From Nitrospinales bacterium (GTDB taxonomy: Bacteria; Nitrospinota; Nitrospinia; Nitrospinales; VA-1), in contig OZ253496.1 in assembly GCA_965262115.1 (NCBI GenBank), positions 1,440,001-1,504,000 of the forward strand: 64,000 bases of DNA, in the 5' to 3' direction. The translations under genes and the position numbers were made by a program. Position 1 is the stretch's first letter, and each line of letters opens with the position of its first letter. The notes under the pieces are model-generated. The model was not told where the DNA came from and ran no database searches. It worked only from the letters and a program-made list of their open reading frames with translations. This document shows, piece after piece, positions 22,431-23,673 of the stretch.

Positions 22431-22479
22431 TGATGTCCTCTTCATTTGTCTTCATGCCCCGAAGCAACTGTGTTAAATG

Positions 22480-23420
22480 TCAAGTGCTGGCAATGAGATT
22501 TTCATTCCAGAGTGTTTTTGTTTTGATCATGGTATTGATGATCGTTAATAACTTTCTCATGCATGCGGTAATGGCAACTTTAAAGGGTTTGCCCTTTTCG
22601 ATGAGGCGTGTGTAAAAGGTACGAATCACGGGATTATGCTGCATGGCAGTGACGGCGGCCATGTATAAAGCGGCACGCACATTGGCGCGACCGCCCCGGA
22701 TACACCGAACTTTCCGCTGTCCCGATTGAGGGGAGCGAGACCGATAAGGGCGGCGATTTGCTTCTGATTAAGAACTCCAAGTTCCGGAACCCCGGCCAAG
22801 AGGTTGACAGCCGGAACGGGACCGGCACCGGGAACACTTTGTATGATCTGGTCGTGCTCACGCCAGGCAGAACTGTTTTTGATGGTTCTGGAAAGGTCGC
22901 CATCGATTTTTCGCAAGCGTTTTTTAAGAGATTCGATATGCTCCTTAATGTCTTTACATATCCATTTTGGAGCTTGTTTTAGACGGGTTTTTTCTTTGGT
23001 CAGCATCTCGATCAACTGGCGACGGCGTGTCACTAGAGCTGAGAGTTCAAGAGATTCTTCGTCTTTGATTTTCCTGACCTCAGGACGTATGGCCTTGGCA
23101 AAATGGGCCAGCACAAGAGAATCAATGACATCGGTTTTTGCCAGTTTCCCGGTGGCTTTGGCAAAATCACGAACTTGCCGTGGGTTGACCACGGCTACTG
23201 GCAGTCGACCCGCAACCAGGGCCGAAGCCAACGGGATCTCTAAGCCGCCTGTGGCTTCCAAAACGATCAATGGAGGATTTAAGGCGGATAAACTCTCGAC
23301 CAAACCAGCAATCCCTTCTTCATTGTTAGCGGTTTGCCAGGTTTCTTGAGTCATGCTGTCAGCAACATCCAGATGGAGTTTAGAAATATCGATGCCAATA
23401 AAATGGGGTTTCTGATTCAT
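22480..23420 (-). pseudogene. IS110 recombinase, frameshifted near 22700
   Basis: GIDISK, LEATG, KTDVID, RDSG; C-terminus [12 protein letters not shown]...ACMRKL lies in another frame. Confidence 0.88.
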
Positions 23421-23424
23421 AATT

Positions 23425-23640
23425 TGGTCTCCCAGCCTTGCCGATGCGGGCTCAGTGGCCCAGGCAACTGTTCGGGTTAATCAAAACAGGACACAACGAT
23501 CTGCGCTTCGGGACGGGCTTAAAAGCCCAAGGGGTAAACGATCTATTGTGCCCTGAATCAAACCCTGTGAGCCTTGTGGAAAACACAAAACCGGCTTCCC
23601 ACAGGGCTCACAGGTACAACTACTACAAATTCCCCTTATG
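23425..23640 (-). ncRNA. Predicted IS110 bridge RNA (ends approximate)
   Basis: 5' stem-loop, then a target loop (TTACCCCT / CCCGAAG) and a donor loop (ACAGTTGC / CAAG) matching the element's own target and donor junctions. Confidence 0.8.
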
Positions 23641-23673
23641 AACAACATACAAGGGGTACTCGAAGGGTTCCCA

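Follow-up and report, generated by a model that had tools for sequence, protein, structure and literature searches.

IS621 of E. coli, a member of the IS110 group, is described as working with a 177-nt bridge RNA (Durrant et al. 2024, PMC11208160; Hiraizumi et al. 2024, PMC11208158), and the insertion sequences ISPpu9, ISPpu10, ISPa11 and ISRm19 are reported to target REPs (Tobes and Pareja 2006, PMC1525189; PMC12288879; 10.64898/2026.03.19.712850). The RNA-guided mechanism of IS110 elements is already published, as is their insertion into dispersed palindromes (PMC1525189, PMC12288879), and what is new here is only the target and the nesting. The IS110-family element described here lies in the window, by which we mean the whole 64,000-nt stretch of DNA that was analysed, and we compared it with its other copies in the source genome (G000) and with homologues elsewhere. 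We consider it very likely that the element is of the IS621 type and that its predicted bridge RNA steers the recombinase into TACCC-CT-TCGGG, the apex of the hairpin of a dispersed 39–41-nt element, here called the mini-element. The literature search found nothing on this IS110 element or on the mini-element in Nitrospina; supplements of bridge-RNA studies, with thousands of guide-target pairs, may include the family.

As in IS621, the recombinase contains the DEDD and serine residues (E 1.5e-30; PDB 8wt6), the core is CT, and the left end is predicted to encode an RNA with a 5' stem-loop and two internal loops (as described in PMC11208160). Also shared with the published IS621 structures are an 8-nt left donor guide, a split right donor guide, a G-T wobble and handshake bases (PMC11208158), while a promoter sequence at the end junction (PMC11208160) and insertion into a dispersed palindromic repeat complete the likeness. 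The two elements differ in how the site is divided, which is given as 7+2+2 for IS621 (9-nt left and 4-nt right target guide) compared with 5+2+5 bp here; in the left end, which at about 233 nt has a longer 5' stem-loop; and in the target, an enterobacterial REP for IS621 but the apex of a GNA-type hairpin in this case. The best solved relative by sequence is the ISCro4 transposase (PDB 9t56; E 2.4e-33, residues 1–304). Like the REP-targeting insertion sequences, the element enters one fixed position of a genome-wide palindromic repeat; unlike REP targets, the mini-element is not symmetrical, its ends are fixed and it inserts into other elements, and no GTAG or CGTC tag stands beside its hairpin, which on the GNA strand is preceded by C-T-T-C-N and has unconserved flanks.

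The features of the locus are listed in Table 1. On the minus strand the two CT cores occupy 23653–23652 and 22464–22463, with GTACCC before and TCGGGG after them. Empty sites hold a single CT compared with one CT at each end of the inserted element, and there is no duplication beyond the core. Intact sister copies are 1200–1201 bp long. The recombinase gene of the window copy had been read from the sequence as frameshifted, and comparison of the assembly sequence with the intact sisters indeed places a 10-nt deletion between 22708 and 22707, leaving an ORF of 264 aa against 316 aa in intact copies; the frameshift costs the C-terminal 78 aa and spares the DEDD and serine residues. An intact sister recombinase scores 227 bits on NF033542 (cut-off 140) and aligns with ISCro4 and IS621 over 300 residues, with D11, E55, D97, D100 and S235 aligned to their counterparts in both, and its closest named homologues are from Nitrospina and Nitrospinaceae. 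With a dead gene but intact ends and guides, the window copy could be moved only in trans or as cargo.

Table 1 Features of the IS110-family element, its target and its host in the window.
Feature	Position	Strand	Basis or remark
IS110-family element, including both CT cores	22463..23653	-	1191 bp; ends common to near-full copies, flanks differ
Recombinase gene, frameshifted	22480..23420	-	PF01548 and PF02371 matches; alignment of copies
-35 hexamer TTGACA at right end, overlapping the stop codon	22478..22483	-	sequence match
-10-like hexamer TATGTT at left end	23644..23649	-	promoter only in joined, circular form
Predicted bridge RNA (5' stem-loop, target loop, donor loop)	23425..23638	-	fold z -4.5; termini inferred
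Long 5' stem-loop of left end	23563..23614	-	fold
Target-binding hairpin with internal loop	23488..23554	-	two-sided changes at 10 of 12 outer-stem pairs, 45 homologues
Left target guide, programmed part TACCC-CT	23530..23536	-	covariation at -2 to -5
Right target guide CCCGA-AG (reverse complement of CT-TCGGG)	23506..23512	-	covariation
Predicted target-loop handshake bases CG	23505-23504	-	directly after right target guide
Left donor guide ACAGTTGC, 8 nt	23464..23471	-	equals right-end ACAGTTG + C
Split right donor guide AT-(CG)-GCAAG	23437..23445	-	IS621 structure pattern
Predicted donor-loop handshake bases GC	23436-23435	-	IS621 structure pattern
Mini-element 5' part TACCC, split off by the IS110 element	23654..23658	-	41-nt unit
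Mini-element 3' part (TCGGGGCA ... CATCACA)	22429..22462	-	intact in IS110-free IS3 copies
Empty 40-nt mini-element with 11-of-12 site CACCC-CT-TCGGG	36449..36488	+	site comparison
Host IS3-family element, cut at the orfA/orfB junction	22089..24567	+	orfA from 22154, orfB 23680–24483; terminal inverted repeats

G000 contains 23 near-full copies of the element, one more that lacks the first 95 nt, and fragments; all 24 DEDD matches in the genome belong to this family. Fifteen near-full copies, among them the one at 657568–658768 of G000, encode the 316-aa protein, six the 264-aa form with the 10-nt deletion, and two are a variant, 88% identical to the main type, whose recombinase is broken too. 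With 15 of 23 copies intact, an assay would not call for the repaired recombinase that had been proposed. The deletion is found in 9 of 24 scorable right ends, and each of its seven main-type carriers retains an IS3 flank on one side or on both. Joining the two ends of the element brings together TTGACA, a 17-nt spacer and TATGTT, a match to a promoter at the level of sequence; the linear element has no promoter of this type, and the joined-end sequence has no match in the assembly. The predicted RNA lies upstream of the transposase gene and the right end is shorter than 20 nt. Membership of the IS1111 group was considered and rejected, the RNA of that group being placed downstream in PMC12288879.

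All four guide segments lie where the sequence-only reading had put them, namely TTACCCCT at 23537–23530, CCCGAAG, the left donor guide, and CAAG at 23440–23437 within the right donor guide. The split right donor guide as a whole would pair with CT-TGTAT, looping out two bases and forming one G-T wobble, whose G is A in the variant element. When the left end was shuffled 20,000 times, the counts for the three long guides were 194, 165 and 55; a single shuffle had two of them together and none had all three. CAAG alone is uninformative (9,201 of 20,000 shuffles, 46%). The left end folds well below its shuffles (Table 1), and an Rfam scan returned no family at gathering score on it. Across 45 homologues the stems around both loops are kept in 97.6% of cells compared with 31–47% for slid controls, and 14 of 22 stem pairs (the helix inside the donor loop left out) have changed on both sides, counts that lean towards the consensus structure because that structure came from the same alignment.

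The guides were expected to fall in single-stranded loops; in the predictions the target loop is mostly open and the donor loop partly paired. In the predicted fold of the free RNA, ACCCCU and UCCCG of the target loop are open (0.73–1.00 unpaired), the AAG of the right target guide is mostly paired in the single-sequence ensemble (about 0.2 unpaired), and UUGC/GCA of the donor loop are paired (0.00–0.17 unpaired). Opening all four guides is predicted to cost 7.3 kcal/mol. The consensus of the 45 sequences leaves the target loop entirely unpaired and again draws the donor loop as partly paired, UUGC with GCAA, in near-invariant columns. Within the 5' stem-loop we also note TTTTCCACA, which presumably fits the DnaA-box consensus. 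Such a box occurs in 7 of 149 left ends, likely as one event because its carriers are all among the closest relatives (65–100% identity, partly the same element), and replication-linked control of the junction promoter is a possible role.

Donor guides are nearly invariant among homologues and so offer little covariation, the exception being L062–L069, in which the donor is ACAGCTG and the guide ACAGCTGC. Read from the sequence, the first handshake base in either loop would match the non-cognate DNA once exchange has taken place but not its own DNA beforehand, an arrangement reported as productive for IS621 (PMC11208158).

The target guides could be examined more closely in 160 homologous loci and four from G000 and its relatives. 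Both ends, full flanks and a readable RNA were available at 93 of these 164 loci, which reduce to 62 distinct guide sets. Positions 1–5 of the right target are Watson-Crick matched in 60, 55, 55, 56 and 57 of the 62 sets (permutation means 15–23, maxima 28–34), and left-target positions -2 to -5 in 37, 37, 32 and 31 of 41 (null 12–19); these permutation nulls overstate the case because homologues are kin and not independent. Matching falls to the null at positions -6 and -7 (13 and 5 of 41; null 13 and 11), while -1 is C in all 41 targets and the guide base there is fixed by the parse. At right-target position 6 only 10 of 62 sets are matched (null 10.5). We rejected a 9-nt extended right target guide, position 6 showing only U-G wobbles (20 of 62) and the preceding G belonging to the scaffold. 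Covariation is absent at the two T's that precede TACCC in the left guide, and we therefore read the programmed site as 5+2+5 bp, here TACCC-CT-TCGGG; the GTACCC-CT-TCGGGG proposed at the outset is correct in its flanks and too long as a programmed target. With the guides located, the copies and flanks in agreement and guide and target covarying, the proposed IS621-type layout is borne out.

Guide and target also change together in G000, where the right target guide of the variant is CCCGCAG (A to C relative to CCCGAAG) and both variant copies sit in CT-GCGGG. This switch is probably one event, because the two copies share a long right flank. Other relatives are less exact. L139, with guide CCCGTAG, sits in TCGGG, so that its first right-target base is mismatched; the element in G016, with guide CCCGGAG, has right junctions TCGGG (twice), CCGGG, TTGGG and GCGGG, three of the five outside mini-elements; and the single copy in G013, with guide CCTGGAG, sits in TCGGG. 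A 57% identical IS110 from a metagenome (L191) has identical target guides and is followed on the right by TCGGGGCAC and then by sequence other than the mini-element, from which it appears that the hairpin motif is targeted in another lineage too.

Junctions in G000 agree with the guides of the window copy at 23 of 26 right and 22 of 25 left ends, so almost all copies occupy the same hairpin site. The right junctions comprise 23 CT-TCGGG, two CT-GCGGG (both of the variant) and one CT-CGGGG, and where the left end is exact (25 junctions), 22 are TACCC-CT and the three deviating ones GACCCC, TACCCC and TGTGTC, the last belonging to a tandem copy that lies within a truncated left end. Comparing 30 nt of right flank distinguishes 14 sequences among the 23 TCGGG junctions, in a loop class that makes up about 17% of hairpins, filled and empty; because flanks have been shuffled between copies, 14 is only an estimate of the number of independent insertions. 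IS3 target duplications are shuffled as well (1 of 13 clearly matched by eye), and IS3 flanks one side only of the copies at 1296052, 1418001, 1811279, 2013360 and 1895285. These one-sided flanks and shuffled duplications point to extensive recombination between IS copies, or possibly to assembly error. At 2144617–2145980 of G000 a truncated left end of 166 nt is followed by a full IS110 copy, and the two meet at a CT within the bridge-RNA gene; the joint matches neither target nor donor, and the tandem may be a half-match product.

The sequence-only reading had the family addressed to a dispersed hairpin micro-repeat. Junctions and guides agree with the address, while the micro-repeat turns out to be the end hairpin of a 39–41-nt element, which all 28 empty perfect sites in G000 represent. 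The 11-mer CCCCTTCGGGG is over-represented genome-wide; in the window alone it has four matches at one mismatch, a number reached by 14 of 100 shuffles, and is not over-represented. The site near 36449, described as empty and well matching, is indeed empty and matches at 11 of 12 positions (Table 1). Five further mini-elements in the window (5173, 16228, 21850, 21995 and 61534) have loop classes unmatched by the guide of the window copy.

The mini-element follows the pattern TACCC-N-TNC-N'-GGGCA-N-GA(A/G) ... ATATCAC-N, in which the closing pair of the hairpin covaries and the loop is GNA on the other strand. Hairpins of this kind number 269 in G000 (1–7 in three base shuffles, 6–14 for altered patterns), and full units are mostly 39–41 nt long. 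Of 22 other genomes in the genus, 20 have the pattern (G009 and G017 do not), as against none of 18 sampled outside it. In viral contigs there was one match, between phage head genes: in the viral contig L211, which has a small gene similar to one in the window, the mini-element follows a capsid-like gene.

Several observations suggest that the mini-element is likely mobile itself. Joining its flanks at offset zero recovers a sequence present elsewhere for 46 of 214 units, above any other offset, some of these recoveries being tandem junctions. IS3 relatives in G016 and G003 have an uninterrupted orfA/orfB junction without the 41-nt insert, by which comparison the mini-element is inserted exactly into the IS3. 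Base 16 complements the final base of the unit in 127 of the 138 distinct units of G000 (null 67), in 44 of 47 units from 15 sampled 20-kb stretches of G013 (null 22) and in 21 of 22 from five sampled stretches of G019 (null 13); it is not complementary to either flank base. Since the last base pairs with base 16, joined mini-element ends would form a hairpin, predicted to have an 8-bp stem and a GAA loop on the GNA strand, and this suggests a joined-end, probably single-stranded circular or multimeric intermediate. A junction between tandem units would complete the hairpin in the same way, and tandem arrays exist, for example at 814860 of G000 with a period of 39.

Hairpin repeats that are short, lineage-restricted and present in hundreds of copies recall the REP/REPIN sequences and their RAYTs, which are thought to be single-strand movers (PMC3733652, PMC3116915). 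The mini-element differs from these in that its hairpin is terminal and needs end joining to become complete, and in that no Y1/RAYT gene was found in G000: PF01797 has no match in this 93.9% complete genome, and a Y1/RAYT mover was rejected on these grounds. A second IS110 as its mover was rejected likewise, G000 having none. Nor does the interior appear to guide the element to its own flanks, 148 flank contexts giving no diagonal signal in spite of some striking single cases. Long autonomous versions were sought among 32 hairpins without a normal 3' end, 100 nt being read by eye; none pointed to a transposase gene, the majority being mini-element copies that were nested or truncated.

In the window the mini-element lies in turn within an IS3-family element, and full nests of IS3, mini-element and IS110 occur at six loci in G000. 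All seven IS110-free IS3 copies carry the 41-nt insert just past the A-rich slip site (window 22406–22462), where by frame arithmetic it would break the usual -1 OrfAB fusion. No uninterrupted IS3 helper was found in G000, only a 55-aa fragment at 1940312–1940476, and yet these copies are 99–100% identical. The nest has phage-like genes for a tail tube and a head-tail connector (PF18906, PF05135) on one side and dnaA on the other (window 18991–21880 and 24621–28903), with gyrB directly after dnaA, 236 nt between them.

If the guides are real and yet insufficient, the recombinase would also depend on a structural gate, recognising the target hairpin or other parts of the mini-element, for which ISPpu10 is cited as a precedent (10.64898/2026.03.19.712850). 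The 12-bp site does form a hairpin, its closing pair conserved in 123 of 138 distinct elements, 25 of the 26 right junctions in G000 run on as mini-element sequence, and even the lone insertion outside one (1212812) is in a CCCC-TTC-GGGG palindrome. Sequence alone nevertheless explains this pattern, because the genome has no perfect site other than in mini-elements; moreover, the G016 relative inserts outside mini-elements, and for many homologues that share the scaffold the predicted sites, such as TCCCC-CT-TTTCG, show no such palindrome by eye. We regard a gate of this kind as unlikely.

Somewhat less probable again is that the IS110 element is a specialist parasite chasing the mini-element, with loop variants escaping and guide variants following. 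The guides CCCGAAG, CCCGCAG, CCCGTAG and CCCGGAG predict first bases T, G, A and C, and the first three correspond to the loop classes TTC, TGC and TAC. Empty hairpins of the target class are few where IS110 has expanded (28 of 204 in G000, 4 of 56 in G015, 0 of 8 in G016) and many in G013 (216 of 390) and G007 (77 of 91), and in three of the seven IS110-free IS3 copies (G000 411121, 603552 and 1657488) TCGTG replaces TCGGG, which breaks the right-guide match. However, about 22 of 50 target-class sites are occupied in G000 and 12 of 16 in G015, and with filled sites added back the class makes up about 22% and 21% of hairpins, as in the IS110-poor G004, G018 and G019 (18–23%). Occupancy being high, the low share of empty sites needs no escape, and we rejected an arms-race reading of the loop-class frequencies. 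G010 has only 3 of 49 hairpins in the target class and yet no IS110; the middle base is free in any GNA-type loop; the guides of L139 and G016 mismatch their own sites at the first right-target base; TCGTG in the three IS3 copies probably goes back to a single mutation; and the mini-element is found in 20 of 22 genus genomes, the IS110 element in only five.

That the IS110 recombinase moves the mini-element is very improbable. Both do insert without a classical target duplication, IS110 enzymes are reported to move gene-less modules (PMC12288879), and G000 yielded no Y1 transposase, but the ends of the mini-element (ATATCAC-N / TACCC) are unlike the donor that the guides spell and lack a repeated core, the only IS110 family in G000 is this one, and the mini-element is abundant in genomes without a match to it. 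Finally, despite the six full IS3 composites and several more copies with one IS3 flank, we dismiss the idea that the guide matches arose by chance or the target preference by passive copying inside IS3, in view of the left-end shuffles, the many copies without an IS3 flank, the same target in G013, G015 and L139, and the covariation across 62 guide sets.

A bridge RNA that steers the recombinase to the hairpin apex therefore remains our preferred reading. Added to the observed boundaries, guides, target preference, covariation and nesting, analogy with IS621 suggests how transcription, the circle and catalysis would proceed. Recombinase from an intact copy would join both ends at the CT core, and the junction would create the promoter from which bridge RNA and recombinase are transcribed. 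The donor loop would then grip ACAGTTG-CT-TGTAT and the target loop TACCC-CT-TCGGG, handshake bases would favour strand exchange, and the element would land at the hairpin apex of a mini-element with CT at both ends. Since the mini-element had entered an IS3 that then multiplied, IS3 copies would offer ready-made targets. Single-strand excision and half-match recombination, described for IS621 in preprints (10.64898/2026.08.31.748434, 10.64898/2026.08.14.744561), would fit the copy number of the element and its odd junctions.

As a bridge system the family offers a clean natural example, with 15 intact copies, a symmetric 12-bp site and a one-base guide change following a one-base target change; its value is modest because both the mechanism and REP targeting are published. 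The end pairing of the mini-element, seen in three genomes, could matter more, since it points to a joined-end intermediate and provides a handle, in substrate structure and strand, for finding the mover. In a bolder reading, which we hold tentatively and think unlikely, the IS110 element would be specialised on a roughly 40-nt single-stranded-circle element of an undescribed kind, grounded at the apex of its 8-bp hairpin, with guides that track the loops. If true, IS3, mini-element and IS110 would form a three-tier nest with an RNA-guided check on its smallest member.
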